Origin: a virus
Taxonomy: Duplodnaviria > Caudoviricetes
DNA length: 61,723 nt
Direction: 5' to 3' (one strand)
IMG/VR virus record: IMGVR_UViG_3300030376_006080
Coordinates: 1 to 61,723 of that record
Shown here: one piece after another, positions 5,218 to 22,303 of the stretch
How positions within the stretch are numbered: the first letter of the stretch is position 1
Layout of the letters: the number at the start of each line of letters is the position of its first letter
Notes under the pieces: generated by a model
Told to the model about the DNA's origin: nothing
The model's input: the letters and a program-made list of their open reading frames with translations, nothing else
The model's database searches: none
Translations under genes and position numbers: made by a program

Positions 5218-5247
5218 TTTAATTCTCCTAAAACGTGTTATACCGAG

Positions 5248-6573: not shown

Positions 6574-6574
6574 C

Positions 6575-7132
6575 TTATTCTCCTTTGATTTCGATATTTA
6601 TATCGAGCAGTCGCTCAATCTCCTTTGGAATCTTCTTTATCTTACTATCTCTATCGGGCTTTGTCAACTCTTTTCTTGAATCTGTTTTGATAATTTTTGT
6701 ATTTAGATGCTCTGGATCGTACATAGTTCGTGTAATCTTTATCTGTTTAGATATAACAATCCTCTCGCAGTGATCTATATTGTCATAATAATGAGTATAC
6801 CATTTACCTCTATAGAAATAAGGAGCCATACCGTTTATCTTGTCTAGACCATAGCTTTTGTTGTCAAGTGTAAAATAATCCACAACAACATAGTCAGAGC
6901 CTTGATACCAGTTGCCGGTCTGCTTACCTTCTTTTGTTTCTGGCAACAATACATTCTTGCGATACTCCCAGAATATAACCTGAATAAACTGTCTCTTTAT
7001 TTCAGGCGGCGTATTAGACTCATAGTATTTATGATTGACTTCTATCAAGTCTACATAATCAACCACTACAACTTTTTCTTTAATACCTCTGTCTATAGGT
7101 AATAACATTAGTAATAATGCTAAGAATTTCAT
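6575..7132 (-). CDS. hypothetical exported protein
   Basis: N-terminal hydrophobic stretch; VDLIEVNH...QVIFW motif. Confidence 0.65.
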   Translation of the reverse strand: MKFLALLLMLLPIDRGIKEKVVVVDYVDLIEVNHKYYESNTPPEIKRQFIQVIFWEYRKNVLLPETKEGKQTGNWYQGSDYVVVDYFTLDNKSYGLDKINGMAPYFYRGKWYTHYYDNIDHCERIVISKQIKITRTMYDPEHLNTKIIKTDSRKELTKPDRDSKIKKIPKEIERLLDINIEIKGE

Positions 7133-8358
7133 TTTTTCCAGCCGTTCTTTAGCAACCTTAAAGCGTTAAGGCCAAGAAACTTTTGAATTATTACATCTGG
7201 ATACCTAAGTGCAGATAGATACTTTGTTATTCTTGGTAGCTCAGACATATCTACTATTTCGTCTGGAGGGTCAGTGAATCCATCAAAGTCAGTACCAATA
7301 GCTATAGAGTCAGCCGAACCAACGGAGCGAATATGATCTATGGTTTGTTCTATGTATTTAAGTCCAAGACCTGTATCTGTCGGTGAAATCCAATAGTTCA
7401 TAAATATAATACCAATTAAACATCCATGATCTGACATCCATTTAATTTCTCTGTCAGTAAGATTATACATATTTCTATTTACGGAAAATGCTCCTACATG
7501 AGAGGCTAATAAACATTCTTCTTTATTGTAATGCTCAACAATGTCGAAGATTTGTTGCCTTGCTTTTGGTGTGCAGTGTGATATATCTATTAACATACCT
7601 AAGTCGAGCATCTTCTCGACAACCTTTTCACCAATAGGAGTTAGACCCTTTGTTTCATCCCAGCGACCAAGCATACCTCTCCAGTCATTGCTATGGCCTG
7701 ATCCGTACTCTGGAAATGGGAATACAGGATAAACACAATCATTCTCATAGAAGTGTGCTAATGTAAGATATGCTACCCCGAAGTCAAAGAACTTCTGTAG
7801 ATTATCTAAACATATTTTTTCTTTTTCTTTGTATGTGAGAGGAGCTTCAAATGGATATGATGAAGCTGAATTGTTTTGTAGTGAGTGACCTCCCTCAACT
7901 GAATGGATCAAAGCGAGCGTACCTCTGTCTAATGAAACATCCAAATCCTCCACACTTTTACATATAGCTATTTGTCTATTATTCTTATCCTCATTCCACT
8001 TCGCTGTTTGCATCTCTATATCATACATTGTAGACATAGTGGCATCAAAATACGAAGAGTTATATATTTTCTTCTTTATGCTAGGAAAAAGAGTAACTAT
8101 TTTTTTGATAATGCCAATGTCGGCAAACCATCCACCTTCAGGGACATAAGCGGTAGATAACATAATATCTAAACCGCCATTCATAATTTTAGGGAATGTG
8201 GCTCTGCTACTAAAAGGCCAAAATTTCTCCTTAAAAAACTTCGCAAGAAGTTTAGTGTTGCTAGAAGTCAAGTCTCTGTTGAAGATTGATGCCTTTATCG
8301 CAGAGTGACAATGAAGGTCTGTTACTATACTAGTTTGGTGTAATTTTTCCCAGTTCAT
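7129..8358 (-). CDS. Membrane/renal dipeptidase-like metallopeptidase (peptidase M19)
   Basis: DLHCH, SVEGGH, LTLAH, GLTPIGEKVV, IDISH, ASH, RNxxNLTD, IGTDFDG motifs. Confidence 0.9.
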   Translation of the reverse strand: MNWEKLHQTSIVTDLHCHSAIKASIFNRDLTSSNTKLLAKFFKEKFWPFSSRATFPKIMNGGLDIMLSTAYVPEGGWFADIGIIKKIVTLFPSIKKKIYNSSYFDATMSTMYDIEMQTAKWNEDKNNRQIAICKSVEDLDVSLDRGTLALIHSVEGGHSLQNNSASSYPFEAPLTYKEKEKICLDNLQKFFDFGVAYLTLAHFYENDCVYPVFPFPEYGSGHSNDWRGMLGRWDETKGLTPIGEKVVEKMLDLGMLIDISHCTPKARQQIFDIVEHYNKEECLLASHVGAFSVNRNMYNLTDREIKWMSDHGCLIGIIFMNYWISPTDTGLGLKYIEQTIDHIRSVGSADSIAIGTDFDGFTDPPDEIVDMSELPRITKYLSALRYPDVIIQKFLGLNALRLLKNGWKK

Positions 8359-8361
8359 TTC

Positions 8362-8676
8362 TTACCTGTTGTTTCGATAAAAATTAAATAAGAACCCATT
8401 GAAAGAGCTATAGTTCTGATTGTAATAACTATTATATCTACTTGTATTCATTCCATTTGAATTTCTGTTGAAAGTATAATAGGTTGGCCTATAGTTATAC
8501 ACATTTACACGAGGAACTCCGAACATATTTGACGGGCGTCTACGGTTGTAGTTTGATGAATAAAATGATGATCTATAGTTATAAGTATTATAGCTATAAT
8601 AGTTGGGGTTTTGCGCACTCAGACTATGAGGAAACAAAAATAAACAAGAAAGTAACGATGCAATAATAGTCTTCAT
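8362..8676 (-). CDS. Signal-peptide, Tyr/Asn/Ser-rich small protein
   Basis: MKTIIASLLSCLFLFPHSLSA followed by a low-complexity YNSF-rich tail; AAGGAG SD. Confidence 0.6.
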   Translation of the reverse strand: MKTIIASLLSCLFLFPHSLSAQNPNYYSYNTYNYRSSFYSSNYNRRRPSNMFGVPRVNVYNYRPTYYTFNRNSNGMNTSRYNSYYNQNYSSFNGFLFNFYRNNR

Positions 8677-8698
8677 AAAATTCTCCTTAAAAAAGTAG

Positions 8699-8770
8699 TA
8701 GGGCATAGAGGAATCGAACCTCTATTGTCGGTTTAGAAGACCGATGTTCTATCCGTTGAACTAATGCCCC
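8699..8770 (-). tRNA. tRNA-Arg(TCT)
   Basis: GGGGCAT/ATGCCCT acceptor, TCGGT-ctTCTaa-ACCGA arm, GGTTCGATTCC. Confidence 0.95.
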
Positions 8771-8774
8771 GCTG

Positions 8775-8981
8775 TCAAAAAATATTTGGTTCGTCTTCTC
8801 CCCAATCGGCATCTCTTGGGTGTATCAATTCAAGGCCAAGTTTTTCAAAGTATTCATAAGCCTGCTGCTTGCAGACAAATCTGGTTACTGGCTCTACAAC
8901 ACGGGTATCAGAATTTTTTTCAAAGACAATGTAGTGTTTGTCTAAGTCTTCGTAAACTAATAAATATTCTACTTCAGGCAT
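8775..8981 (-). CDS. hypothetical protein
   Basis: MPEVEYLLVY...; overlaps the upstream stop. Confidence 0.5.
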   Translation of the reverse strand: MPEVEYLLVYEDLDKHYIVFEKNSDTRVVEPVTRFVCKQQAYEYFEKLGLELIHPRDADWGEDEPNIF

Positions 8982-9147
8982 TATGTTCCTCAACCCTCTT
9001 ACCATCTTTATCCATAGTAATCCATCCACACCCCTCGCATAATCCATAGTATCTTTCGTTATGTCTAACTAAGCCTATAAAATCATTCTCGTGGGCATGT
9101 TCTTCGCCAAATAATTCCTCTGTACACTGGTGACAAAAACTAGCCAT
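8974..9147 (-). CDS. small CxxC...CxxC protein (57 aa)
   Basis: Manual translation MASFCHQC...NDFIGL...LCEGCGWI. Confidence 0.6.
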   Translation of the reverse strand: MASFCHQCTEELFGEEHAHENDFIGLVRHNERYYGLCEGCGWITMDKDGKRVEEHNA

Positions 9148-9331
9148 TATTTCTTAAATCCTTTACTAAGCTGTAGTAGTCTACCTGCTGTTCACTAGGG
9201 GTTATTCTGGCGACTTCCCATTCTGGGTATCTTTTTTCTATTGACTCTTGTGCGCTTTTGATGTCAGTTCCTTCGACATACCTTACTTTGTTCACACCTC
9301 TTGTGTTTACTAAATTTACTATATACTTCAT
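9140..9331 (-). CDS. hypothetical protein
   Basis: ORF with AAGGA SD. Confidence 0.55.
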   Translation of the reverse strand: MKYIVNLVNTRGVNKVRYVEGTDIKSAQESIEKRYPEWEVARITPSEQQVDYYSLVKDLRNNG

Positions 9332-9652
9332 TTAGTAATCCTTACAAAAATAACTATAGATGATTAAACTAAGCAGAGCGCTTAATATATATGATCCAGT
9401 AATATCCTCTAATATATGCTTGTGGTTGAAAAGTATCGCCATTCTCTCAATACTGCTCATGACATTACTTCTCCCAATTAACAGGTAACATCCTCAGTAT
9501 AGCATATCTTCGGTTAGTCGCAACCTTTTTCTTTAGAAATTTTAGTAACTTTACCTGAGAAAGTAATAGTATAATTCCTAGAGTGGGACTGGCTACATAA
9601 CCTAAAGGTACAATGCTTACAATAGCAATAGTATTAACGAAAGAAAACTGCT

Positions 9653-9802
9653 CTATGTCCATGCTTTTTTTAGAAGAGTCAAAAATATCTCTAAGTCCAT
9701 TTCAAACTCTATATCTCCATTTTCATCTATACTGACATCTACTTCGTCTGGCGAATCTGCCGCCATCTTTTGTAGTTCATATGTTAAATCGAAGTCATCC
9801 AT
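9653..9802 (-). CDS. small acidic protein (49 aa)
   Basis: Manual translation MDDFDLTYELQKMAADSPDEVDVSIDENGDIEFEMDLEIF... Confidence 0.5.
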   Translation of the reverse strand: MDDFDLTYELQKMAADSPDEVDVSIDENGDIEFEMDLEIFLTLLKKAWT

Positions 9803-10115
9803 TGTAAGGCCATATTTCTGCTAGGGCTGAATTAACAACAGGTATATCTATTATCCATCTGCCATACTTGCCTGTCTTATGGGTGGTGAAATATAAATAC
9901 CCTTCGTCGTCCAAATTTTCCTGCATAAGGTTAGCAAACGCCCATGTAGCTTTTTGGAAATCTTTCTCACCTCTCTCTGGAGTATTTACTCCATCTAGTC
10001 TACATCTGACCTTAGCGTGCATATAAAAACCTAGATCAATATCTAAGTCTACAGTATCGCCATCTACTACCCTAACAATTTTGCCCCTATAGCCATTGTG
10101 TACAAAGTCGCCCAT
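9795..10115 (-). CDS. Thermonuclease (SNase-like) family protein
   Basis: VRVVDGDTVDLDIDLGF, RLDGVNTPE, GKYGR. Confidence 0.85.
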   Translation of the reverse strand: MGDFVHNGYRGKIVRVVDGDTVDLDIDLGFYMHAKVRCRLDGVNTPERGEKDFQKATWAFANLMQENLDDEGYLYFTTHKTGKYGRWIIDIPVVNSALAEIWPYNG

Positions 10116-10588
10116 ATTACCTTCTCCTTATCTGCTCATTATTAATATCGAACAACCAATAATACACACTAAGACAAAGTAAATGCAAATCTCGGAGATT
10201 AACTTATCTCTCTTGAATCTGTCCTGCTTCTTTTGCGTAGAGTAGTTTCTGTAATGTCTCATATTAATTATCTCTAAAATATAGATTAAAGGATTTTTTT
10301 ATATTTTTTATATGGGCTTTTAGAGAAAAACAAAGAAAAGTAGTTAAGAGGTAAAAGCCTTACATATATTATAGCCTACATAACGGCCTAATGCAAAGCT
10401 AATTACACATCCTATAAATATAGGGGTAAAGTCAGTAATCATATCATATACCATAGTAATAATACTCCTAAAGAATACAGGGTTTGGATATTGTCGAATG
10501 TAAAATTAACCTACTTCGGGCGCAACAAGTATATATACTGGGTTTTTTACCCAAAAGTTGGTTATATTTGGTTCAGAAATGGGGATAT

Positions 10589-10972
10589 TTACCCTTTTGT
10601 TGGAAAGTCGATTGTTATATCTGGTGTCTTTCCTGAGTTATTTGGTAGGTGAATTCCTATTTCTCTTATGCCTACTCTAAGAAAGTAGCTAGTAATGGTC
10701 ACAACTTTGGTCTGATTCCTCTTACAGAAGCGTTTATGATAGAAACAGACTCTACCATACTGATAATCTCCCTTTATCCATCCTTTGTACAGACTAAATC
10801 TATATTTACCATCATAGTCTTGTGGCTTCCCGCACTTAGTTAATATATTAGCAATGACATATTGTTCTAGGCTAGGCGTTTGGTTTATTAACTCAACAAT
10901 GGGGCTAGTATTATTTTTAGACTTCGCCCTTGTTCTCTTTTTGGGAATTGGTTGGTGCATAGCAGTCTCCAT
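10589..10972 (-). CDS. hypothetical basic protein
   Basis: ORF with AAGGAG SD, own promoter at 11009-11036. Confidence 0.6.
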   Translation of the reverse strand: METAMHQPIPKKRTRAKSKNNTSPIVELINQTPSLEQYVIANILTKCGKPQDYDGKYRFSLYKGWIKGDYQYGRVCFYHKRFCKRNQTKVVTITSYFLRVGIREIGIHLPNNSGKTPDITIDFPTKG

Positions 10973-11322
10973 AATGTCTCCTTTGAAATAGTGTTGAGGT
11001 TTTCCTCTAGTATAGTATACACATCGGGATTTGCAAATGGAATCTTTAGAAAAAAACAGAAATCATGTTGGCTCTTTTGGTACTTGAGTATGATAATAAG
11101 GCATATTAACATCCAACGAAAGAATGAATAACACTAAGAGCTTGTATCGTATATCTAAAGGAGTTTACACTCTTAACTTAATCGTTCATATTAGCAAGAA
11201 AGACTAAGTATAATATATTGACCTATCTCTTAATATTATTGGTAAGTTTATGTATGACCCCCACTTATTAATTATTCTTACTTTTATCTGCTAATACTAA
11301 TCACTTTATAGGTGGAGGAATT

Positions 11323-11490
11323 ATGTCCAAAAATAATCCATACCGCCCACCAGAAAATGATAGCCGCCCTCGTCTCCCAAAATACAGAGAGCCTCTAGTA
11401 GACTGGCCATCTTTGATTATAATATTAGGCACTCTATTTGCAATATTAACATTTGCACTTCTTGCTATTTCAGCATCGACAAAACTCTAG
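11323..11490 (+). CDS. small membrane protein (55 aa) with N-terminal NPYxPP motif
   Basis: GGAGGA SD; MSKNNPYRPP...WPSLIIILGTLFAILTFALLAI; only clear plus-strand gene in the left arm. Confidence 0.6.
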   Translation: MSKNNPYRPPENDSRPRLPKYREPLVDWPSLIIILGTLFAILTFALLAISASTKL

Positions 11491-11496
11491 AGCTGC

Positions 11497-11647
11497 CAGA
11501 GCCCAAGCTCCAGCCAGTTGTCGGGCAAGTTTAGAAAATACACAGAGCCTCACCCAGCAGAGCTGTACTCCCCAGCAGTTGTCGGGATAGAATAGCAGAG
11601 ACAAAATACCGAGATTACAGGGCCCAAGCCATATGCCAGTCGTCAGA
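11497..11647. repeat. degenerate tandem repeat, 3 units with 61-bp period
   Basis: CAGTTGTCGGG at 11515 and 11576 and CAGTCGTCAGA at 11637, each preceded by CAG(A/G)GC. Confidence 0.55.
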
Positions 11648-11666
11648 CATGATAAGGTAGGACATA

Positions 11667-11682
11667 CCCCTCCCTAGAGGGG
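11667..11682. repeat. half copy (single 16-bp arm) of the 55-bp dyad element
   Basis: CCCCTC-CCTA-GAGGGG, abutting the stop codon at 11684. Confidence 0.7.
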
Positions 11683-11683
11683 G

Positions 11684-11932
11684 TTAAACGTGCGGACAAC
11701 CAACATCGCTCAGGCGATCCATAAACTTCCACATCTCAATAAATTCACATGTACCATTCAGAACTTCCCAGTCAGGGTACTCTTCATCAGCCCAGTGATA
11801 TATATAGCTAGAATTGCCAGTCTCAGCAATTGCATCACATACATCAGGCGGTACAGGTACAGACATAGAGGAGCCTACATTACCCCTAGACAGAGTAATC
11901 AAAACTACACCTTCAATATCATCATCATTCAT
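11684..11932 (-). CDS. acidic hypothetical protein, single-gene unit
   Basis: Own promoter 11960-11987, AAAGGA SD, flanked by repeat elements. Confidence 0.65.
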   Translation of the reverse strand: MNDDDIEGVVLITLSRGNVGSSMSVPVPPDVCDAIAETGNSSYIYHWADEEYPDWEVLNGTCEFIEMWKFMDRLSDVGCPHV

Positions 11933-12029
11933 ATAATTTTCCTTTCGTGTTACAATACTAGTATACTATAACATCGACCATTTTCAACAAATACTTTACT
12001 AGAATCCCCAGAAAATGTTGACTATTTTT

Positions 12030-12084
12030 CCCCACCTTTAGGGGGTTCGATGTGTGCCGGCACAGCCTCCCCCCATCAGGGGGG
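12030..12084. repeat. 55-bp tripartite dyad element, copy 1
   Basis: CCCCAC-CTTT-AGGGGG ... TGTGCCGGCACA ... CCCCCC-ATCA-GGGGGG. Confidence 0.9.
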
Positions 12085-12085
12085 T

Positions 12086-12123
12086 AAAATTACCGCCGGC
12101 AGAACTTGCCCACCGGCGGCAAT
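12086..12123 (-). terminator. intrinsic terminator-like hairpin after the DUF932 gene
   Basis: AUUGCCGCCGGU/GCCGGCGGUAAU stem followed by a short U-run. Confidence 0.6.
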
Positions 12124-12221
12124 GCGCTAGCGTTTATTAACGCAATCGAGACATCCTCGAATGAGCCCCGCAATAAACGCCAGCACCACCACTACAAATA
12201 GCGTTAGGCTAGGCTTCTCAT

Positions 12222-13445
12222 TCAAGCCGACGCCATATAAATCTTCTCGAAGTCCTTATCGGTAAGAGTATTGGCACGGGCAACCATGCTCTCCCATCGA
12301 GACCCAGAGACATCCAGCAGGCTACCGCCGATTTCGTCGAACCGAACCCAACCTTTATTATCCAGCACTTGACCAGCGCGAGTAACCGCATTGACCACAC
12401 CAAACAGATTTTTGTCGGCTCGCTCGTAAGTAGCCCATTGGCTAAACACTTCGGACGCCTCAGCCTTAGATAGCTTATATTCACTAGCTACCACACCGAA
12501 CACGTTTTTCATGCGAACGTCAACAACTTCCATCTCTTGAAGTTCCAACAACTTGCGAACACCCATAGGTAGAAGGGGTAATTGCTCGTTAATGTTTTCA
12601 GAGATAAGACCACCAAGTTCAACCAAGTCAATCGTCCCAATGTGACGCTTCTTGATTTGCTTGCCAGATACCTGTCCCCAGATACAACCATTCAAACAGA
12701 TAGAACGGAATAGGCTAGGCGTTTGGGAAATACGGCGTTTACCGATTTCACAATTACCAATAGACATCATACCGCCATAGTCGGAATCGTCAGATTGACC
12801 GTAATCAATAATCGTATCAGGCAAAAGAATATTACCGTAGATAGTATCCTCGTCACCGCGCCAGTGAGACAATCGACCTTCCGGCAGATTCTCTTTTAGC
12901 TGCTCCAAGTACCAACGGTTATCAATCGGTGCGTATCGGTCAGTAACGAACGCTCGACAAGTACCATCGGTATAGGTGCGTAGTCGATACTTCTTTTCAG
13001 GGTCAAGACGACGTAAAGCATTATTAGCAAGCATTGCCATAACTTCGGCATCTTGGGTATCATAATCAGATTGCTCACGCAGTTTTGAAATAACTGTCGA
13101 ACTCGGCACAGATGCACGAATAGAGAATTGTTGCAACGCCCAGTCAGTCGGCTCGAATTCACGGTCATCGACATTGAAAACAAAGTTACCATCGTCGTTG
13201 ACAGTAGCCTCAATAGACTTAACGGGCATCATTAGGTCTTCACGATCCTCAGCGGAACGTTGCAGGTTTTCCATTGCATCATCATAAGAAACAGTAGTTG
13301 CCCACCAATCCTTATGCACATGCGTACCCTTATGGAAACCTGTTCCAGTTTGACCTTGCAGCTCACGAACGAAGGAACCTTCGTTTTTATCTGCGGTCAT
13401 CTGTAATTTAGTGTAGTGGTTCATATCAGAACTCCCATAAAACAA
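12222..13445 (-). CDS. DUF932-family protein
   Basis: LRT...RAFVTDRYAPIDN, G.SIGNCEIG...SLFRSICLNG, KKRHIG, LFGVVNAVTRA. Confidence 0.75.
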   Translation of the reverse strand: MFYGSSDMNHYTKLQMTADKNEGSFVRELQGQTGTGFHKGTHVHKDWWATTVSYDDAMENLQRSAEDREDLMMPVKSIEATVNDDGNFVFNVDDREFEPTDWALQQFSIRASVPSSTVISKLREQSDYDTQDAEVMAMLANNALRRLDPEKKYRLRTYTDGTCRAFVTDRYAPIDNRWYLEQLKENLPEGRLSHWRGDEDTIYGNILLPDTIIDYGQSDDSDYGGMMSIGNCEIGKRRISQTPSLFRSICLNGCIWGQVSGKQIKKRHIGTIDLVELGGLISENINEQLPLLPMGVRKLLELQEMEVVDVRMKNVFGVVASEYKLSKAEASEVFSQWATYERADKNLFGVVNAVTRAGQVLDNKGWVRFDEIGGSLLDVSGSRWESMVARANTLTDKDFEKIYMASA

Positions 13446-13484
13446 GAAACTTAATACTTTAGTATAACATATATATCGGCATTT

Positions 13485-13889
13485 TCAAGCCGGAACTTGA
13501 AGTAAATCGCTATTAAAATACTCACGCGTGAATATTGCTTCGACGTACTTCCAACCCTCACCGCATGACAGGTGTGCATACTCTGACCACTCTTGTGGCT
13601 CATGGTCATCAGCAGAAACAAATGTTGCGTGCTTGTATGGATTATATGTTACATCGAAACTAATTAGCGGAACTGGTACACGGTCAACCATATACCCAGT
13701 CAGAAATGCGTGGACGTTTTTACGTCTCTCTTTAAGTACCTTTGCACGTCCTGCCGGTTGGACTAGGTAACGCACATCTTTTAGACACACTTCGGTGTGA
13801 TGCTCAACGGGCGATCCAGATTGACGGACGCTCCAAATTTTCTTGTGTAGGTTGAAGTAAACAGACACGCGGCGGTTTTTGTCGATCAT
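13485..13889 (-). CDS. conserved phage protein (VYFNLHK...KNVHAF...YNPY type)
   Basis: Motifs VYFNLHKKIWSVR, V.PAGR.KVL.ERRKNVHAF, VTYNPYK recalled from many phages. Confidence 0.7.
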   Translation of the reverse strand: MIDKNRRVSVYFNLHKKIWSVRQSGSPVEHHTEVCLKDVRYLVQPAGRAKVLKERRKNVHAFLTGYMVDRVPVPLISFDVTYNPYKHATFVSADDHEPQEWSEYAHLSCGEGWKYVEAIFTREYFNSDLLQVPA

Positions 13890-13973
13890 AAAAATCTCCT
13901 TGTAGTGGTTGATACCTATTAAGTATACTATACTTATCGACCATTTGCAAGGGAAAACTTTAATCTTTTTTTA

Positions 13974-14028
13974 CCCCACCATCGGGGGGTAGGCCGTGTG
14001 CCGGCACACGCACCCCCCACCAGAGGGG
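13974..14028. repeat. 55-bp tripartite dyad element, copy 2
   Basis: CCCCAC-CATC-GGGGGG ... CGTGTGCCGGCACACG ... CCCCCC-ACCA-GAGGGG. Confidence 0.9.
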
Positions 14029-14041
14029 GTTCTTAGTCTAT

Positions 14042-14077
14042 AAAAAAAGGCCGCCTACCACAAAGGATAGACGACCT
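14042..14077 (-). terminator. intrinsic terminator
   Basis: GGUCGUCUAUC/GGUAGGCGGCC stem plus U7. Confidence 0.75.
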
Positions 14078-14095
14078 CCACAACAACAAGGAAAA

Positions 14096-14392
14096 CTACT
14101 TGATAGCTTGCATGGCGTTAACCATACGCCCATTGTAAAACGCTTTGGCTTCGCCGTCAGTCGTTTCAATGGTCACTAACTTGTTAGACCGTTCACCCTT
14201 GATTTTGCCATAACGCAGAGTTGCGTCAGACACAGGGCTTTTTTCGATGTCTCGAACATCGACGATCTTGCCGGAATAATTCTCGGCTCGTGCTGAGTAA
14301 TCCTTCGTCAGGACACCCTTAGCATTTATGGCACTTTCAGCGCCTTTCAAGTAAGTGAAACTAATTTCTTTTCCAATTTCAAAAGCAGTCAT
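14096..14392 (-). CDS. hypothetical protein, possible WYL/SH3-like fold
   Basis: I.FTY...KAFYNGRM resembles the WYL-like pattern; GGAGG SD. Confidence 0.5.
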   Translation of the reverse strand: MTAFEIGKEISFTYLKGAESAINAKGVLTKDYSARAENYSGKIVDVRDIEKSPVSDATLRYGKIKGERSNKLVTIETTDGEAKAFYNGRMVNAMQAIK

Positions 14393-14472
14393 AATCAGAC
14401 CTCCAAACATAAAACAAAATCCTAGTTACTGTTAACACTTCTATTATACAATATATATCGGCATTGTCAAGC

Positions 14473-15249
14473 CTAAACCTTTAATTTCTTTCTAGAATAA
14501 CTACCTTTCCCCTTTAATTTTTTGAGTGCTGTTGATGCCTCTGATCCTGCCGGTTGAGTACCGTGAATCAATAAGGCGAAACTATTGTCTCGTAGTGACG
14601 GCTTTGCCGCGTGTGAATCGTCGTGGTCGATTGCCAAACCTAATTCTTCCGCTTCCGCTTCGCTGAATACAACCTTAGTTGAACGTAGGTTAAACTCGTC
14701 AATCATATGGTCATCACGTCCACCATAGGAAGCAGTCAAAACAAAGTTGTGAAGTATAGGCAATTCGTTAATGCCACCTACCCAAAATTTAAGGGACTTA
14801 GTATAAGCATAGAATAGCACATTAGGGTTTAGTGCTGCGACCATATACCATGCGTGCATATAGGGAAGACTGAAAAAATCACCTGCTACATGGATGCGAA
14901 CAATACCGGCGTTTTCAGGTAGTGAACTATTGATTAGATTTACCATTTCTTCGTGATTTTGTTTACGCAACAAATCAAAATTGTGCTTGCGTGAATTGTA
15001 TACGTTGGTATACTGTACTTCTTGCGATGCTGAGAAGCAACGGAATTGAGTATGCCTACCATCTTTAATTTTACGTTTGCCATTGTCCTGCACTACTGCC
15101 TTAGATAGACAATCTTTTGCATGAGGACACGACCAACCCGATAACAGGTCAAGCGAGTATATTTTGCGATTGCCTTGTAGGTACTCGGCTAGTTCTGCAT
15201 CGTTGGCGAGTGCTTGCGTTTTGGCGTTGGCTTTGCTGAATTTTAGCAT
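14473..15249 (-). CDS. GP88-like protein
   Basis: N.K...SLDLLSGWSCPHAKDC...CFSA, VRIHVAGDFFS, FYAYTKS. Confidence 0.75.
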   Translation of the reverse strand: MLKFSKANAKTQALANDAELAEYLQGNRKIYSLDLLSGWSCPHAKDCLSKAVVQDNGKRKIKDGRHTQFRCFSASQEVQYTNVYNSRKHNFDLLRKQNHEEMVNLINSSLPENAGIVRIHVAGDFFSLPYMHAWYMVAALNPNVLFYAYTKSLKFWVGGINELPILHNFVLTASYGGRDDHMIDEFNLRSTKVVFSEAEAEELGLAIDHDDSHAAKPSLRDNSFALLIHGTQPAGSEASTALKKLKGKGSYSRKKLKV

Positions 15250-15357
15250 TGTGTTTCTCCGTGTGTTGTGATTGTTATACTACCAGTATACTATATATAT
15301 CGTCATTCACAAGCTATAATCTTTAAGAATTATCGGAAAATGCCAGAAATATTTTTA

Positions 15358-15412
15358 CCCCACTATTGGGGGGTCCGCGTGCCGGCACATCCCTCACCCC
15401 CCACAAGAGGGG
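15358..15412. repeat. 55-bp tripartite dyad element, copy 3
   Basis: CCCCAC-TATT-GGGGGG ... GTGCCGGCAC ... CCCCCC-ACAA-GAGGGG. Confidence 0.9.
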
Positions 15413-15491
15413 AAAAGGAAAGATACCACCCATGCCGCTATTTCAATCGCGATGATTCACCGGACTCACAGGGTGGCACTCCTCCCAACCA

Positions 15492-15677
15492 CTAGAAGTC
15501 TAGTACTGTATTGTACTTCTTCTTAGCAACCCGTTTGATGTAAGACGGATGTCCGGTGTGTAGGACTCGTCCACTACGGGCTTCAGTAATCTGCGCCCAC
15601 TGGTTGCGTTGGCGGTTCTTAGTGTTAAGGTGAGCGTCAATCTCAAGTGCGAATTGTTTAGTAGTTGCTTTTGGCAT
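15492..15677 (-). CDS. small basic hypothetical protein
   Basis: MPKATTK...; GAAGGAG SD. Confidence 0.6.
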   Translation of the reverse strand: MPKATTKQFALEIDAHLNTKNRQRNQWAQITEARSGRVLHTGHPSYIKRVAKKKYNTVLDF

Positions 15678-15802
15678 AATAAAATGCTCCTTCAAAAAGT
15701 GGTTAGTAGATAGTCTACCGTTCGTTTAGCCAGTCGATAAGTCCGAGTATTAGGCCAGTGACGAACGCTAAGACTATAGTAAAAAGTATTGTTAAACTGG
15801 GT

Positions 15803-16066
15803 TTACTCTGCATCGGCTTCTTCAGCTTCACGCTGAGCTTTTGCGATTTGCTCCTTATCATAGTTTTCCAGATCCGTGGTCAATTCCTTAGCCAAAGCAC
15901 GAGCCTTGTCGAGTGGCATCTGAACATTCAGCTTGTACTCTGAGCCGTCTGACTCGTAACCGTTGAACTTAAGTTCCACGTTGCCAGACCAACCTGATAC
16001 ATAAGTGTTTAGGTAAACTTCAGTACCGCATTCTACACTGAGTGCGTTGGTTTTTTGAATCTTCAT
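15803..16066 (-). CDS. hypothetical protein
   Basis: AAGGAG SD, promoter 16107-16134. Confidence 0.65.
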   Translation of the reverse strand: MKIQKTNALSVECGTEVYLNTYVSGWSGNVELKFNGYESDGSEYKLNVQMPLDKARALAKELTTDLENYDKEQIAKAQREAEEADAE

Positions 16067-16164
16067 GCGATTCTCCTTAGTGGTGGTTAGTAAATGTTAC
16101 TCTTTGATTATACTATAGTTATCGTCATTTGCAAGCCGTGACTTTAATTTTTTTCTGACTTTTT

Positions 16165-16324
16165 TGCCAGAGCCGGTTGCCCAAAGTCTTCGGCCCCAGC
16201 TTACCCCCAGTTGTCGGGATGGTAAGGGTAAGACATCAGGATGCTAAGCCGTCACATCATGCCACACGAGACCTATGGTGTGACACCCCTTCATCAAGGA
16301 GGCTTTAATTGGGCTGCGTCTTAC
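16165..16324 (-). ncRNA. putative ~160-nt multibranch ncRNA
   Basis: Own promoter 16331-16358 and no ORF in the track. 5' GUAAGACG pairs with UGUCUUAC. Other helices: AAGCC/GGCUU, CUCCUU/AAGGGG, UGUCACAC/GUGUGGCA, CUUACC/GGUAAG, CUGGGGCCG/CGGCUCUGG. Confidence 0.6.
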
Positions 16325-16396
16325 TCCTCCATTATAATATATATCGGCTTATTCGCAAGGGAAACTTTAGTATAATCTCAGATTATTTTTGAAATA

Positions 16397-16450
16397 CCCC
16401 ACCATCGGGGGGTGCGTGTGCCGGCACATTCCTACCCCCCAAGAGAGGGG
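16397..16450. repeat. tripartite dyad element, copy 4 (54 bp)
   Basis: CCCCAC-CATC-GGGGGG ... TGTGCCGGCACA ... CCCCCC-AAGA-GAGGGG. Confidence 0.9.
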
Positions 16451-16512
16451 GTTCGTTGTAGTCCCTGCCGGCTGTCTTGATGTGAACCGACAGGGACACC
16501 GCACAACGAAAG

Positions 16513-16692
16513 TTACACTTTGAGCGCGCCTGACTTCAGCATACCTTCAGTCGTCTTGAAGTTGTGAATAATATCTTCACCCTTCTCATTCTGAAAAATT
16601 ACTGAGTCGTTTTGAATAGCGACGACACTCGCCTTGATACCCGTTAGGGTGAACTCAACCGGCTTACCGGCTTTCAAAATTGCATCTACCAT
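16513..16692 (-). CDS. small hypothetical protein (59 aa)
   Basis: MVDAILKAG... with GAAGGAG SD. Confidence 0.6.
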   Translation of the reverse strand: MVDAILKAGKPVEFTLTGIKASVVAIQNDSVIFQNEKGEDIIHNFKTTEGMLKSGALKV

Positions 16693-16845
16693 TATTGGTA
16701 CTCCTTCATAGTTGCCCGAGTTTGTGCGGATCGAGTGCGTTGACGTTTCGGGCGATTGTCCCACGCTCCCGTACCAGTGAAGTGCTGGCGGTGACCTATT
16801 GATACTTTAATATCTTCGGCCTTAATAATCATCTTCTTGCTTTTC

Positions 16846-17214
16846 TTACGCATCTAATTCTAGCTCCATTGCTGAGGCGAAAGCCTGCTCGTTTTTGTAT
16901 AGTCTGTCTTCATTGACTTCATATGGAATCTCTTCACCGTTGGCTACTGCGTCACGGTACTTGTTTAGGATTGCCATACGTTCAGGCGTGCCACGCCCTT
17001 CAGGTGTATCGTAAAAGATAACAGGTCTTTCACGGGCTGGAATCTCAGCCTTTGCTTCTTCCACTTGGTCAGCCTGTTTGTTTAGGCGTTTCAAAGTCTT
17101 ACCACCTTCACGGTCGTCGTGGTATGCTTCGGGCAAGTGTTCGTTTGGAATCCATAGACATTCCATAACAGCGGCGTCTAGTTCAGCGAGCATCTTTTTT
17201 GTTGTTTCGTTCAT
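16846..17214 (-). CDS. hypothetical protein
   Basis: MNETTKK... with AAGGA SD and promoter 17249-17277. Confidence 0.6.
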   Translation of the reverse strand: MNETTKKMLAELDAAVMECLWIPNEHLPEAYHDDREGGKTLKRLNKQADQVEEAKAEIPARERPVIFYDTPEGRGTPERMAILNKYRDAVANGEEIPYEVNEDRLYKNEQAFASAMELELDA

Positions 17215-17290
17215 ATCGAAATCCTTTGTTGTTGTTTTGTATACTACGATTTTACCATAGCGGAAGCTGATTTGCAAGCCCAAAAAACTA

Positions 17291-17602
17291 TTATTTTTGG
17301 ATTACTTTTACAGACCAGTTATCGCCAGCGTAGTCCACGTAATTGTCACCGTGACTGTAGACAGTAACGCGACCACCATAACCGTATGATCTAGGCTGAT
17401 CCTGTGCGTCGTCGTCCTGAACAGGATACCAACGATCTCCACAACAATCGCAATCAATCCCATCGGCTACGCCATTGAAATAGATACCATTATCCTGTGC
17501 GATAGCGTTTGCGGCTTTCGCATTATCTGCCTGAATGAATACCAACGGAGTACCGTTGTAATGTCCGAACGAATTGTTCTGTTTGAATTTGAAGTAGCTC
17601 AT
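17291..17602 (-). CDS. conserved phage protein (QNNS...GIYFNG...DCxCCGDRW type)
   Basis: Characteristic Cys cluster; consensus TTGACA-17-TATAAT promoter at 17631-17659. Confidence 0.7.
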   Translation of the reverse strand: MSYFKFKQNNSFGHYNGTPLVFIQADNAKAANAIAQDNGIYFNGVADGIDCDCCGDRWYPVQDDDAQDQPRSYGYGGRVTVYSHGDNYVDYAGDNWSVKVIQK

Positions 17603-17845
17603 CTTATTTCCTTTCGTTTAAGATAACCCTATTATACCATAAAGTATGCCGATTGTCAAGGGCAAAACAGAATTATTTACAAAGTTTATTGTAAAACTTC
17701 CGCCCCTAAAAAACCAACCAAGCAAGCACCAACCAATAATAATAAGAATGTCATATTGTTCTCCTTTCATTCTATACTATTATTATCGGCATGTATAGCC
17801 CTAACCTTTAGATAATTCGGAGAAAAACCTAACTATTTTCAAAAC

Positions 17846-17900
17846 CCCCACTGTCGGGGGGTGCGCGGGGCGGCCCGCTACTCATCCCCCATCAGAGGGG
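17846..17900. repeat. 55-bp tripartite dyad element, copy 5
   Basis: CCCCAC-TGTC-GGGGGG ... GCGGG-GCGG-CCCGC ... TCCCCC-ATCA-GAGGGG; abuts the stop at 17901. Confidence 0.9.
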
Positions 17901-18149
17901 TTATGCCCACTCCCATTCTTCAGGTGGTGCCAAGTCATACAGGTCGTCACCCTCTGCCGTCATTGTTACATATGGCGCGACTTCTTCAAGGTTGAAGCTG
18001 CCCATTTCTTGATGTAGTCCCATCACAACACCGAAGGCGTTACCTTCAATCGGCGGATCTAAAATATAATATTCCCAACCGTGTTTTGTGATCAGCCATT
18101 TATGAACTGTGAACTCGTTCCCGCTTGGGCTTTTTACTTTTCTGCTCAT
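17901..18149 (-). CDS. DUF2958-like protein
   Basis: WEYYI...AFGVVMG..QEMGSFNLEEV pattern. Confidence 0.55.
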   Translation of the reverse strand: MSRKVKSPSGNEFTVHKWLITKHGWEYYILDPPIEGNAFGVVMGLHQEMGSFNLEEVAPYVTMTAEGDDLYDLAPPEEWEWA

Positions 18150-18151
18150 CT

Positions 18152-18319
18152 TCAATTTCCTTTCAGTGACTCGCACCACTTGCTAAATACTTCACGGGCA
18201 TCGGCTTTGTTTAGTCCGAACTCATGCTCTAATTCTCTCGGCGCTCCCATCATATTCATAGAACCGCCATCTCGTAGATCACTTAGGAACTCAAAATATT
18301 CTTGCATGTACTCGTTCAT
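18152..18319 (-). CDS. small conserved phage protein
   Basis: FLSDLRDGGSMNMMGA...L..EF...A..VF..W. Confidence 0.6.
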   Translation of the reverse strand: MNEYMQEYFEFLSDLRDGGSMNMMGAPRELEHEFGLNKADAREVFSKWCESLKGN

Positions 18320-18485
18320 CTTTATACTCCTGTTACCTGATACTTGTGTCCGTTTTCTAGCGTGATTGTTCCACCGAAGAACTCCCACATAATTTTTGAC
18401 TTCATCGCTTCACGATTTAATCTTTCCAGCTCCGGCAAATCTTTTTGCACTTGTTCCGGTGTGCAATCTGTTTGTAAAATTCTCA

Positions 18486-18746
18486 TTAGAACTCCTCCGT
18501 TATTTCAACTAAAAAATCATCATTGTGAACTGTACCGCATACGCCAGTTTCAGACCACGACAAACTGAAAACAGTATTCCCGTCTGCGTCTTTAACTTCA
18601 AGACCACGAACAGAATTCCATAGCGCGCCATCTTCATCGGCACACATTTTCAGCGTATCGTTTTTCATTTCAAACGCCTGCGCTCCGTCTAGGTTAAAAA
18701 CCTCTAGGCTTTTATTGGCTCTCTCATTTGCAACTATCATAATCAC
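18486..18746 (-). CDS. hypothetical protein
   Basis: ORF coupled to the upstream gene. Confidence 0.55.
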   Translation of the reverse strand: MIMIVANERANKSLEVFNLDGAQAFEMKNDTLKMCADEDGALWNSVRGLEVKDADGNTVFSLSWSETGVCGTVHNDDFLVEITEEF

Positions 18747-18979
18747 TTCCCTACTGCTAATTTACGTAATGCGTCGAAACTTTCGTTTCCGACAAGTTGT
18801 TTCCACTTCTTTATGACATAGTCATATTCACCCTGACATTCAACAGTACCCATTGATGAGCCGGTTGAACCTACCCAACTACAGATAGCGTACTTGCCTA
18901 GTCGGTTGCATCGCACTAGGTGACGCTTGCCGGTTGGGGTTTCTTTCGTTCGTCTGATTTCGTATGCTGTATAAGCCAT
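18743..18979 (-). CDS. hypothetical protein
   Basis: AAAGGA SD, promoter 19006-19033. Confidence 0.6.
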   Translation of the reverse strand: MAYTAYEIRRTKETPTGKRHLVRCNRLGKYAICSWVGSTGSSMGTVECQGEYDYVIKKWKQLVGNESFDALRKLAVGK

Positions 18980-19042
18980 CTTATTTCCTTTCGTCTTATA
19001 CTAATATTTTACCATAGCATTTCTGATTTGCAAGTATTATTT

Positions 19043-19336
19043 CTAAAAACCTTGAAGACCATGCAAATCGTGCAGCATGTCCCAATGGTCACAAGCTGCG
19101 TTCCAATCTTCAGCTGAAACTTCTTCAGCTTGATTTTCATTTTCGTTTTGGTTTTCGTCAACCATAATATTGTTCCTTTCAAGAACGTCTCGTTGTATTT
19201 CGTTGGCTTGTTCATAGCTCAGTTGGTGGTGTATTTCTACTCCGCCGGTTGGACTAGTAACGCCCAGCACTCTCATACTTGGGATGTATTCAAAAGTGAA
19301 GCCGTTAGTTGTAACTGTTTTAGTACCTTTAATCAT
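19043..19336 (-). CDS. hypothetical protein with acidic C-terminus
   Basis: AAAGGA SD. Confidence 0.6.
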   Translation of the reverse strand: MIKGTKTVTTNGFTFEYIPSMRVLGVTSPTGGVEIHHQLSYEQANEIQRDVLERNNIMVDENQNENENQAEEVSAEDWNAACDHWDMLHDLHGLQGF

Positions 19337-19394
19337 TTTAGTTCCTTTCGTTGAACTGTCTTAATGTCTTATATATATATTATCGTCTAAGGGT

Positions 19395-19906
19395 GTGACA
19401 CGTTAGGTCACTCACTCAGATTATTTTGTAAGAAAGTATACTTTTTTTATCTGTGTGAATATATCTTTTTACACGGGGAGCATAGAACATAATGCTATCG
19501 CCGTCGAACTCAACCAGTTCCGCTGTTGTCTTATACTTCCAGTCACAACGGACACCGCGTCCAGAGATCGCAATCTCGCAATCGTGAGGGATATTTTCGA
19601 TGAAGTTTTCTATTAGTATCATATTATTTCCTTTTGTTATCGTTTCTGTTATGTCTATATTATACCATAACCCTGTGACACGGTTGGTCACTCGTGCCGG
19701 TTGATTATTTATTTTTTGGCAATTTAAAGGTTTTTATTTTCTTCTGTGTTTGCTTCAGCGTGCCGGCTGATAAGCATCCGGTGAATATATCCGCAAAGCG
19801 TTTCTTGCTCGCGTTGTGCATTGCTATTGCTTTTTTTCTGTTGTTCATCATTTCCTTAACTCCTTATATATATATTATCGCACATGGTCGTGACACGTTA
19901 GGTCAC
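19395..19906. promoter_or_regulatory. three GTGAC-N7-GTCAC operator-like inverted repeats
   Basis: At 19395-19411, 19675-19691 and 19890-19906, each where the -35 region of a leftward promoter would lie. Confidence 0.75.
19416..19622 (-). CDS. hypothetical protein
   Basis: MILIENF... with AAAGGA SD. Confidence 0.55.
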   Translation of the reverse strand: MILIENFIENIPHDCEIAISGRGVRCDWKYKTTAELVEFDGDSIMFYAPRVKRYIHTDKKSILSYKII

Positions 19907-19950
19907 TCGTAAGACATTTTTTCAAAATAATATATTATTTATCTCAAAAC

Positions 19951-20005
19951 CCCCACCGATAGGGGGTCAGCGGGGCGCCCCGCACCACTCCCCCCACTAG
20001 AGGGG
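19951..20005. repeat. 55-bp tripartite dyad element, copy 6
   Basis: CCCCAC-CGAT-AGGGGG ... GCGGGGCGCCCCGC ... CCCCCC-ACTA-GAGGGG; abuts the stop at 20006. Confidence 0.9.
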
Positions 20006-20170
20006 TTAACCCCAATAGTCAGGATCGTCAAAGACCATAAACAGATCGTTCGGCAGTTCCATCACAGGCTCGCCTTCCCACATCTCCGCCTCCCATTCAG
20101 CCTGTGCGTCGTACAGGTCAGCGGCGGTCAGTTCGTCGGATTGTGGGTTGGTGTCAAATTTAGAAAACAT
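20006..20170 (-). CDS. highly acidic 54-aa protein, single-gene unit
   Basis: Manual translation MFSKFDTNPQSDELTAADLYDAQAEWEAEMWEGEPVMELPNDLFMVFDDPDYWG; promoter 20208-20236. Confidence 0.65.
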   Translation of the reverse strand: MFSKFDTNPQSDELTAADLYDAQAEWEAEMWEGEPVMELPNDLFMVFDDPDYWG

Positions 20171-20273
20171 AGTAAAACCTTTCGAGGAGTGAATTTGTTA
20201 TGCCTTGATTATACTATAAGTATCGGCAGATGTCAATAGCAAACTTGAGAAAAAAACAAATTATTTCAGAAAC

Positions 20274-20328
20274 CCCCACCATCGGGGGGCGCGCGGGCCG
20301 GCACGTACCATTCCCCCCACTAGAGGGG
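20274..20328. repeat. 55-bp tripartite dyad element, copy 7
   Basis: CCCCAC-CATC-GGGGGG ... GCGGGCCGGCACGT ... CCCCCC-ACTA-GAGGGG. Confidence 0.9.
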
Positions 20329-20356
20329 CATATTGTCTGGCAACATCAGCATGTAC

Positions 20357-20392
20357 AAAAAAACCGCCTGCAAGGTTTCCCCTGCAGACGGC
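20357..20392 (-). terminator. intrinsic terminator
   Basis: GCCGUCUGCAGGG/CCUUGCAGGCGGU stem plus U-tract. Confidence 0.8.
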
Positions 20393-20413
20393 CAACGAAA
20401 GGAATCTGCTCTA

Positions 20414-20686
20414 TTATTTAGAAGCGGAACAGAACGCCGTTTCTCCCATGTGTGCTTCACACCATGAATCAGTCCATTCACTAAATCCACAGTCGGCACA
20501 AATCTTATTGTAATCATATGCGGGATACGTCAACTCCTGCATCTTGAGAGGTTTCATCTCTATGATCTCAGCGCCACCCTCTACCTTTGCCGATGTACTA
20601 CACCCTAGCAATAGGGCACAGCATAACCCAGCCAATAAAGCTAATGTACATAGTGCCGCCGCTTTTACTTCTGTTTCTTTAGCCAT
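20414..20686 (-). CDS. putative lipoprotein
   Basis: MAKETEVKAAALCTLALLAGLCCALLLG-C lipobox-like; Cys-rich C-terminus. Confidence 0.5.
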   Translation of the reverse strand: MAKETEVKAAALCTLALLAGLCCALLLGCSTSAKVEGGAEIIEMKPLKMQELTYPAYDYNKICADCGFSEWTDSWCEAHMGETAFCSASK

Positions 20687-20983
20687 GCTAATAAACCTTT
20701 CTTTTTTGTTTGTTCTTTCTTCCTGTTGTCCAGCCGCTGGAATTCCCTCGCCAACTGTATTGCGTGTATTCTTCGCATACGCATTATTACTTACTCCAAA
20801 AAATTCATATTCGCTTATTGTCATTAGTTCACCATTGACATATAAAGACCAAAGGATGCGATGCACGAAGCACCAAGCCAAAACAGATATTCGTTAAACT
20901 TCTCTTTCATTACTTTATCTCCCAAGGACAAGCCAATGCCATAACATAAACAGACACAATCATAATACCTAAAACTAATTCCA

Positions 20984-21166
20984 TTACACGCACTCCATAT
21001 TATATTCGTGTTCTGCTTGCCCGTAATCGTCACAGTTAAACACGGGTATACCGTCAACAATTACCTCGTAAACTTCACAATGCCTATTGCGTACTAATTC
21101 AACCAATCGGCCATTGTCGTCCGCTTCTGATTTATATACTACAAAATCCATATCGTTTCCTTTCAT
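20984..21166 (-). CDS. small acidic hypothetical protein
   Basis: Promoter 21173-21200; probable start MDFVVY. Confidence 0.55.
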   Translation of the reverse strand: MKGNDMDFVVYKSEADDNGRLVELVRNRHCEVYEVIVDGIPVFNCDDYGQAEHEYNMECV

Positions 21167-21315
21167 GCTCTTATTATATAATACTTATCGGCGTTTGCAA
21201 CTAAAAACTTTAGGAAATTTGGCAACTTCTCCGTCACCCCTGTCCTAGTGTTGACCCCCCTAACCAGTGTCGGACTGGCTTGGGATGTACACCTGTCCGG
21301 AATTCGCCGCACCTT

Positions 21316-22248: not shown

Positions 22249-22303
22249 CCCCCCTCGTGGGGGGTGTGCGGGGCGGCCCGTTCCTTCCCCCTCTATCGGG
22301 GGG
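22249..22303. repeat. 55-bp tripartite dyad element, copy 8
   Basis: CCCCCC-TCGT-GGGGGG ... GCGGGGCGGCCCGT ... CCCCTC-TATC-GGGGGG. Confidence 0.85.

Follow-up and report, generated by a model that had tools for sequence, protein, structure and literature searches.

We describe an element in a stretch of DNA of 61,723 nucleotides (nt) from a virus of the Caudoviricetes (IMG/VR record IMGVR_UViG_3300030376_006080; a 61.7-kb viral contig with an estimated completeness of 40%, which we refer to as the window), namely a short region that contains no open reading frame (ORF) and from which a structured RNA appears to be transcribed on the minus strand. The minus strand carries the genes up to about 24 kb of the window, and this early region is punctuated by an extended promoter repeat in ten copies (D1) and by a GC-rich multi-hairpin repeat in seven copies. 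One D1 member is a sigma-70-type promoter on the minus strand (TTGCGA-16-TATAAT, 16331 to 16358) that agrees with the consensus at 10 of 12 positions (-35 box TTGCGA at 16358 to 16353, -10 box TATAAT at 16336 to 16331, 16-nt spacer), and a copy of the multi-hairpin repeat (approximately 16390 to 16510) immediately precedes it. The next promoter on the same strand (TTGCAA-16-TATAAT, 16107 to 16134) serves an ORF of 87 amino acids (aa; 15803 to 16066, minus strand).

An earlier reading of this DNA, made from its letters (the sequence-only reading), had proposed that an ORF-less unit encoding a structured minus-strand RNA lies between these two promoters, and the comparative data given below back this central claim. 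The particulars that it listed for the locus are also as we find them: a full promoter stands right after the repeat copy; the inter-promoter stretch, said to hold no ORF of 60 aa or more, has none on the minus strand even of 20 aa or more; and the predicted start of transcription near 16324, the first base of the closing helix (P1, below), agrees with the start expected 6 to 8 nt past the -10 box. Folding of the minus strand gives -65.9 kcal/mol (z = -2.40, with 2 of 200 shuffled sequences as good), and the plus strand folds no better than its shuffles (z = -0.51, 63 of 200 as good). A terminator-like site was not found on the minus strand between 16330 and 16135 of the window; the sequence right after P1 (CCCUUACC) has no U-tract, and a GC-rich stem followed by a U-run, as in an intrinsic terminator, is not seen.

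Fold and covariation of the RNA

The sequence-only reading had named homologs and their covariation among the means of judging its proposal. About 50 distinct homologs were found (49 distinct rows in the alignment that we call A3, plus four later finds), and they define a conserved unit of approximately 97 nt on the minus strand, from 16324 to 16228, rather than the approximately 160 nt first proposed. The unit is closed by helix P1, whose 5' strand (GUAAGACGCAG, 16314 to 16324, beginning at the predicted +1) pairs, as GUAAGACG.CAG, with CUG-AU-GUCUUAC (16228 to 16239). P1 carries compensatory changes in nine of its ten pairs among the 49 sequences, and its inner triplet CAG/CUG is swapped for UAG/CUA, UGG/CUA, CAA/UUG or CAC/GUG in other members. 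The 3' strand of P1 directly abuts, with zero spacer, a second helix, the hairpin Px (GAUGU-GACGGCUUA-GCAUC, 16240 to 16258, minus strand), which has 5 base pairs (bp) and a 9-nt loop with an invariant GGCUU (16250 to 16246). Px had been overlooked by the sequence-only reading, and it shows the cleanest covariation of all the helices: in A3 every one of its cells is paired and four of its five pairs change on both sides (variants include GAUGG/CCAUC, GACGG/CCGUC, GGCGG/CCGCC, GGUGG/CCACC, GAUGU/GCAUC and GGGGU/ACCCC), and in a raw MAFFT alignment it is 95% paired, again with four of five pairs compensatory.

Over the whole model (P1, Px and the pseudoknot described below), 92.3% of the cells in A3 are paired, compared with 81.1% in shuffled alignments, none of 500 of which reaches the observed value; both-sided changes occur in 13 of the 20 modelled pairs, and pairing falls to 29 to 51% when the 3' partners are slid by one to three columns. 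A single restored pair illustrates the pattern: locus L238 has C-G where its close relative L029 has G.G. The strand is fixed as minus by the G-U pairs of Px, which number 14 G-U and 8 U-G cells in this hairpin and would be A.C mismatches on the opposite strand, and together with the fold z scores they sustain the earlier claim that G-U pairs favor structure in a minus-strand RNA. On this comparative evidence P1 and Px may be taken as proven by compensatory changes, the family and its fold are near certain to be real, and we are highly confident that a conserved structured RNA family exists at this locus. The core persists through changes of its flanks, inner arms and genomic location, indicating an RNA-level function under tight selection.

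Inside P1 the elements follow one order, CCC-ARUNA-AAGCC, one or two variable arms, an invariant (A)GGG, and Px. The junction segment (CCCAAUUA, 16306 to 16313, minus strand) has the family consensus CCC-A-R-U-N-A, in which position 24 varies among U, A and C; CCC was retained in all members recovered with search anchors that left it free (5 of 5 and 2 of 2), and it may pair with the invariant GGG at 16288 to 16285 to form a putative helix P2. Next comes AAGCC (16301 to 16305, minus strand), which is invariant save for one G-U and would form the 5' strand of the predicted pseudoknot. It is complementary to the GGCUU of the Px loop in 49 of 49 rows; GGCUU is present in the Px loop of every member, and the 5'-anchored search pattern did not force it. 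Both strands are invariant, and hence show no covariation. The sequence-only reading had drawn this pairing (16305 to 16301 with 16250 to 16246) as a nested helix, as folding programs limited to nested structures also do. The complementarity stands; the nesting does not, because AAGCC lies outside Px and GGCUU within its loop, so that the pairing would cross Px and be a pseudoknot, presumably between two loops. For the 97 nt of the window, a nested fold that includes Px scores -30.0 kcal/mol and a fold like that of the sequence-only reading -31.2 kcal/mol, with the pseudoknot bonus not counted in either. If CCC and GGG pair, the RNA would be a compact three-way junction of P1, P2 and Px with two side-by-side arms and two of its three corners spacerless, and the two pseudoknot strands, one per arm, would then each start 8 nt above the junction.

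The two inner hairpins of the sequence-only reading are both present, and both are variable. The first arm (CCUU-GAUG-AAGG, 16288 to 16299, minus strand) is replaced in other subgroups by CCUAG-CCGUUAAGUCGG-AGAAGGG, by bigger two-hairpin inserts or by no hairpin at all. The second, an optional arm between GGG and Px (UGUCACAC...GUGUGGCA, 16260 to 16285, minus strand), shows both-sided changes in two pairs among seven window-type sequences and is missing from the minimal cores. We distinguish four arm types: the window type (CCUU-GNUG-AAGG plus one hairpin), the CCUAG type (the replacement just given, plus an optional hairpin of unrelated sequence), an armless minimal type with a core of 58 to 59 nt, and a type with a two-hairpin insert, named after the related contig G002. 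Close relatives, with flanks that are 85% identical, have a different inner domain, exchanged exactly past AAAGCCU, and a relative's contig from an RNA library (X6) switches exactly at 16299 from window-like sequence to the G002-type inner domain.

The remainder of the proposed RNA, the 3' tail (16165 to 16227, minus strand), contains a sequence motif and A-tracts before the next promoter. Two further hairpins had been assigned to it by the sequence-only reading; both fold in the window sequence, yet the structure is not conserved, in that a consensus of 16227 to 16165 over eight relatives reaches only -1.84 kcal/mol with no compensatory pairs. The last of these hairpins (CUGGC-A6-GUCAG) is embedded in A-tracts, and most of the relatives listed have comparable A-tracts before their next promoter. 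The tail motif, CCCGACAACUGG (CCGACAACTGG in the window, at 16217 to 16207), is found as YCYGACRAYTG 18 to 20 nt past the inner CUG triplet of P1 in 9 of the 49 members. Copies of YCYGACRAYTG(G) lie at 16207 to 16217, 11514 to 11524, 11575 to 11585 and 11636 to 11646, all on the minus strand; the last three are in tandem, about 61 nt apart, downstream of an ORF near 11.5 to 11.7 kb. In the tails of those 9 members the motif is conserved as sequence and not as structure, and it could be a protein-binding site.

The homologs were gathered with several probes. No similar DNA was found in 50,697 phage records in either near or distant search modes, and the 59-aa protein encoded upstream found no relatives. 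The 87-aa protein, used as a query, recovered three related viral contigs. One of these, G002 (145 kb, 94% complete), aligns with the window over 11958 to 17899 at 85% identity and shares with it the promoter and the 5' and 3' parts of the element; its inner domain is different and larger. The conserved 5' motif (CAGCCCARTTAARGCC) matched 42 stretches of viral contigs, six of them true homologs, and the same motif plus T matched at least 118 stretches of metagenome contigs; after filtering and de-duplication there were at least 44 distinct members, which form alignment A2 (built from 134 motif occurrences, after removal of one false positive, L135, and inclusion by eye of three members). With an anchor placed in the 3' half (GGTATGGCTTCCCRYC), 47 stretches were matched, which yielded five new members with a deviating 5' motif; a variable-arm anchor gave two more. 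A 3' motif (CCATCCCGACAACTGGG) was discarded as a probe: of its 11 stretches only that on the G002 contig was homologous, the other ten being chance matches in coding sequence. Leaving the 5' strand of the pseudoknot free revealed no new member with an altered pseudoknot among the 113 matches listed, which is a weak test. A scan of 185,579 species genomes returned only two matches, on 3- to 5-kb contigs binned with metagenome-assembled genomes of Flavobacteriales and Chloroflexota, and we read these as phage fragments rather than as evidence of a host. A covariance model of the element (R1) found one copy in the window and one in each of the records searched whole, namely G002, G007 (163 kb, 98% complete), G004 and G008. 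A weak R1 match in G003 (E = 0.056) lies in coding-like sequence and was not accepted as a member; this record is a 33% fragment, so the absence of the element from it means nothing.

A short translated ORF, the other explanation of the conservation that had been raised, was looked for and does not account for it: no ORF is conserved across the members, the longest forward ORF having a median length of 8 aa and being absent in 13 of 49. The claim that the RNA belongs to no known family held as well. With the 4,227 models of Rfam 15, the whole window gave only four tRNAs elsewhere at the gathering score, the region 15700 to 16800 gave only a chance mir-203 match inside the 87-aa ORF at E values up to 10, and 12 diverse member loci gave nothing overlapping the element at E values up to 5. 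Neither ARAGORN nor the Rfam tRNA model places a tRNA at 16.2 to 16.3 kb (the four tRNAs of the window lie at 348 to 498, 5247 to 5321 and 8698 to 8770). Searches of the literature by topic and by literal motif found no published description of the family. The 10,006 candidate structured RNAs predicted by Fremin, Bhatt and Kyrpides (2023; PMC10690425) are alike in that they also derive from IMG/VR and include covarying intergenic motifs of unknown function; the abstract and section headings of that paper name no such motif, and the family may already be listed there, unnamed, among the candidates.

Genomic context and phage lineage

By a regular-expression search, a promoter lies directly upstream of the element in 32 of the 49 members. 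The end of its -10 box is 12 to 15 nt before the inner CAG in most of them, so that transcription should begin at the 5' strand of P1. In 40 of 49 there is a further promoter no more than 260 nt downstream, and clear terminator hairpins follow the element in L054, L192 and L231. The position relative to genes is not fixed: the 87-aa gene, which comes after the RNA in the window, comes before it in the related contig G001. Among the ORFs that directly follow the element in L109, L127, L128 and L149, only those of L127 and L128 show an obvious likeness at the N terminus (compared by eye). One member, L146, has a tRNA gene (534 to 606) that starts about 10 nt past the 3' strand of P1, and the tRNA and the RNA are probably co-transcribed there; this adjacency is seen in 1 of 49 loci. 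Contigs from four RNA runs also cover the locus, one of 635 nt (X2) spanning 15712 to 16355 at approximately 90% identity and others covering parts, and they were used neither for nor against transcription (13 of the 24 runs listed are recorded as RNA, and at least half of the words are present in one run of unknown kind).

The promoter repeat of the early region is about 53 nt long, with its ten copies within 4768 to 21219 (for example, 16101 to 16153 and 16325 to 16377), and is laid out as an A/T-rich upstream part, the -35 box, a GACGATA-like spacer and the -10 box. The sequence GUAAGAC, which many members have as the 5' strand of P1, is found again in L178 and L237, there after the -10 box of promoters that serve mRNAs or other units. 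The first transcribed bases of such promoters in two relatives are GAGUAAGAC, to which the 3' strand of P1 in the RNA is complementary. Additional ORF-less units with a promoter, in which the closing helix again uses the GUAAG(A/G)C start, occur in relatives (L002 of G001, at 2320 to 2470; L237, about 50 to 230 nt downstream of the element; and L150, downstream of the element), with closing helices such as GUAAGGCAG...CUGUCUUAU and GUAAGACAGAGGGGC...GCCCCCUGUCUCUU; they look like further small-RNA genes of different families. The GC-rich multi-hairpin element (CCCCNNNNGGGG, GUGCCGGCAC, CCCCNNNNGGGG) recurs between early genes, mostly just before a promoter, and is found in the relatives too. 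In the window it occupies 12025 to 12084, 13969 to 14028, 15351 to 15421, 16390 to 16510, 17839 to 17909, 19944 to 20014, 20267 to 20337 and 22249 to 22285 (the largest repeat family having seven copies), and it is probably a compound terminator or insulator. Upstream of the RNA, a 53-aa arginine-rich ORF (...DNRPKRQRTRSAQTRA..., 16692 to 16853, minus strand) has no Pfam or PHROG match; 19 of 49 loci have a member of its family upstream of the RNA, at a median distance of approximately 0.9 kb. It is possibly an RNA-binding peptide, or the linkage may be mere synteny.

The phage lineage is abundant in marine data. Of 8,000 candidates scored with the major-capsid-like protein, 4,932 match with E values up to 1e-10, and the best matches are on contigs of up to approximately 150 to 160 kb, several of them from ocean surveys; near-complete relatives measure 145 kb and 163 kb, and the phage collection contained no cultured relative. 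This abundance adds weight to the finding, and model R1 can be used to annotate the element in marine viromes. The minimal core of 58 to 59 nt (about 67 nt with P1) is of a size suited to direct biochemistry and structural work.

Several other features of the window may be recorded here. A 54-nt repeat in three copies (19360 to 19413, 19640 to 19693 and 19855 to 19908) consists of an AT-rich -10-like run followed by an inverted repeat (GTGACACG..GGTCAC), and looks like a second type of promoter or operator. Five tandem repeats of 60 or 66 nt (38342 to 38653) lie within a plus-strand ORF in the structural-gene half of the window and encode a unit of 20 to 22 residues. The structural module includes three very large consecutive plus-strand ORFs (45803 to 53122, 53089 to 57807 and 57807 to 61076, of 2,439, 1,572 and 1,089 aa). 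An early protein of 258 aa (14473 to 15249, minus strand) belongs to PHROG 1392, of unknown function; it is 39 to 45% identical to hypothetical proteins of several Synechococcus phages, has weaker kin on a marine viral contig and in some Streptomyces and archaeal-virus records, and is weakly related to part of a protein found in many mycobacteriophages.

Possible roles of the RNA

The succession of promoter, RNA, stop and promoter suggests a separate small-RNA gene, to which the single copy in each relative searched whole, the lack of obvious likeness among the ORFs that follow and the position in G001 also point. A tightly kept, tertiary-looking core with swappable arms suggests, in turn, that the fold itself is active, rather than an antisense seed. 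On the basis of layout, context and this core and arm pattern, the reading we favor, and to which we give about an even chance, is that of a free-standing RNA, expressed early, which depends on its fold to act in trans on a protein or small ligand. The RNA would be made early as a discrete, stable molecule, would act through its fold by binding its protein or ligand, and would be neither antisense to, nor the leader of, one particular gene; in the window it would either be cut out by processing or stay attached as the 5' end of a longer RNA extending into the 87-aa gene.

A number of observations weigh against this trans-acting RNA, or against the model of it. There is no recognizable upstream promoter in 17 of the 49 members, where an ORF or a terminator-like hairpin precedes the element. 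The window has neither a U-tract nor a terminator 3' of P1. In L127, L128 and L149, P1 is followed by U6 to U9, GGAG(G) and a start codon, and in L109 a ribosome-binding site and AUG come about 20 nt past P1; in all four these signals stand no more than about 20 nt past the element, arrangements that resemble an attenuator or a leader. The RNA-library contigs of relatives define no transcript ends: they cover the region without strand or ends, they cross the promoter, and DNA carry-over is possible. Annotation of neighboring proteins with Pfam and PHROGs gave only DUF7296 on the ORF at 17291 to 17602, with nothing that bears on the RNA or a partner. As to the model, A3 was fitted to it and is therefore biased toward it, P1 is only 68.6% paired in the raw MAFFT alignment, the 5' 17-mer was imposed by the search pattern for 44 members, and CCC/GGG and the pseudoknot never vary, so that covariation cannot test either pairing.

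A more specific form of the trans-acting RNA, put forward tentatively and thought rather unlikely, is a new free-standing natural aptamer or ribozyme, transcribed early from its own strong promoter. The invariant unpaired CCC-ARUNA, the Px loop and the pseudoknot would then form a binding or catalytic pocket, and the RNA would soak up a host metabolite or signalling molecule, or capture a host protein, instead of regulating the adjacent gene.

Among the explanations that differ in kind, the one that survives best, at a similarly low level of belief, is a cis-acting attenuator or riboswitch, in which the folded domain would close P1 and a U-tract would stop transcription, and in which the unfolded or ligand-free RNA would allow reading into the next gene. 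Aptamers typically show invariant unpaired nucleotides, a pseudoknot and variable arms at the periphery, and a conserved aptamer-like fold with covariation is what was found; a T-run of at least four stands at the 3' end of P1 in 16 of 49 members, and the arrangements in L127, L128, L149 and L109 just described are those of an attenuator. Against it, 40 of 49 members, the window among them, have a separate strong promoter past the element and ahead of the next gene; the directly following genes show no obvious likeness by eye except in L127 and L128; and the element stands on the other side of the 87-aa gene in G001. With these three features the element does not form the 5' untranslated region (UTR) of any coherent gene set. 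Members of the window type lack a U-tract, and an alternative, antiterminator pairing was not found, the one idea tried (J1/2, CCCARUU, with a downstream AAYUGGG) having been rejected, with the full 7-mer in 2 of 49 members and a partial 6-mer in one more.

We think it improbable that the element is a cis-acting RNA for processive antitermination, comparable to HK022 put, or to lambda nut acting with an arginine-rich partner, through which polymerase would read across the multi-hairpin elements. What speaks for such a role is a promoter-proximal, ORF-less, structured element with +1 at its first base, an early region with seven copies of the GC-rich multi-hairpin repeat, and the 53-aa arginine-rich ORF upstream with its relatives in 19 loci. 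The terminator-like hairpins and U-tracts that come right after the element in many members suit the end of a gene better; in addition, the genes downstream are served by promoters of their own, the element lies midway in the early region and not at its start, a likeness to put or nut was neither tested nor seen, and the link to the arginine-rich ORF may be plain synteny.

Quite improbable, too, is a self-cleaving ribozyme or processing signal of a new class, which would cut early transcripts or mature neighboring RNAs. A compact pseudoknotted fold with invariant unpaired bases is like those of small ribozymes, and a tRNA gene follows the element closely in L146. The Rfam searches of the window and of the 12 loci, at E values up to 5 to 10, gave no match to twister, pistol, hatchet, hammerhead, HDV-like or other ribozyme families, and the tRNA adjacency is confined to a single member. 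Moreover, +1 at the first base of P1 leaves no 5' leader for a ribozyme to remove.

Self-assembly in the manner of phi29 pRNA, in which AAGCC of one molecule would pair with GGCUU of the next, 'hand in hand', in a ring or chain that scaffolds a phage machine, is very improbable. The gross anatomy would agree (ends that pair, a predicted three-way junction at the center and a pair of complementary loop segments), there is an early promoter of its own, and the relatives searched whole each have one copy. Rfam, which includes a pRNA model, gave no match; the loops are invariant rather than co-varying; and the window encodes a conventional large-terminase-like ORF (28269 to 30266; PHROG 2, E = 7.1e-22). 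Both loop segments, furthermore, would start 8 nt above the junction (3 bp plus 5 nt, and 5 bp plus 3 nt), and these equal heights would fit pairing within one molecule. That the stretch has no function of its own, being a spacer or 5' leader with structure by chance or by hitch-hiking conservation, is barely credible: the single-sequence z score is only -2.4 and the flanks are likewise conserved in close relatives, but neither point meets the compensatory changes in 13 of 20 pairs, a covariation matched by none of the 500 shuffles, and a core kept despite changing flanks, inner arms and genomic position.

Comparison with known systems

The put RNA of HK022 and the nut sites of lambda resemble the element in being promoter-proximal, ORF-less and structured, in a phage early region rich in terminators. 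They differ from it in architecture (two plain stem-loops as opposed to a predicted pseudoknotted three-way junction); moreover, each relative searched whole has one copy of the element, and a terminator-like signal and then another promoter often come immediately after it.

In its predicted fold the RNA resembles the purine riboswitches, three-way-junction aptamers in which P1 likewise closes two side-by-side arms whose distal parts pair, and in which a variable periphery surrounds an invariant core. The conserved unpaired bases here (CCC-ARUNA) lie in an arm, however, and not in the junction, and the element is neither placed consistently in the 5' UTR of one gene family nor matched by any riboswitch model of Rfam.

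The phi29 pRNA shares with it the general plan of a phage-encoded, promoter-driven, ORF-less RNA whose 5' and 3' ends pair, together with a central three-way junction (which here is the predicted one) and two short complementary loop segments. In contrast to pRNA, the loops of the element are invariant, and it has no likeness in sequence or by covariance model to any Rfam family; the phages also differ, one being of about 150 kb with a terminase-like ORF and the other a 19-kb protein-primed phage. Few free-standing structured phage RNAs are known to have a defined function (tRNAs, phi29 pRNA, put RNA and some antitoxin or anti-CRISPR RNAs), and we rate the RNA described here as a new family within this known kind.

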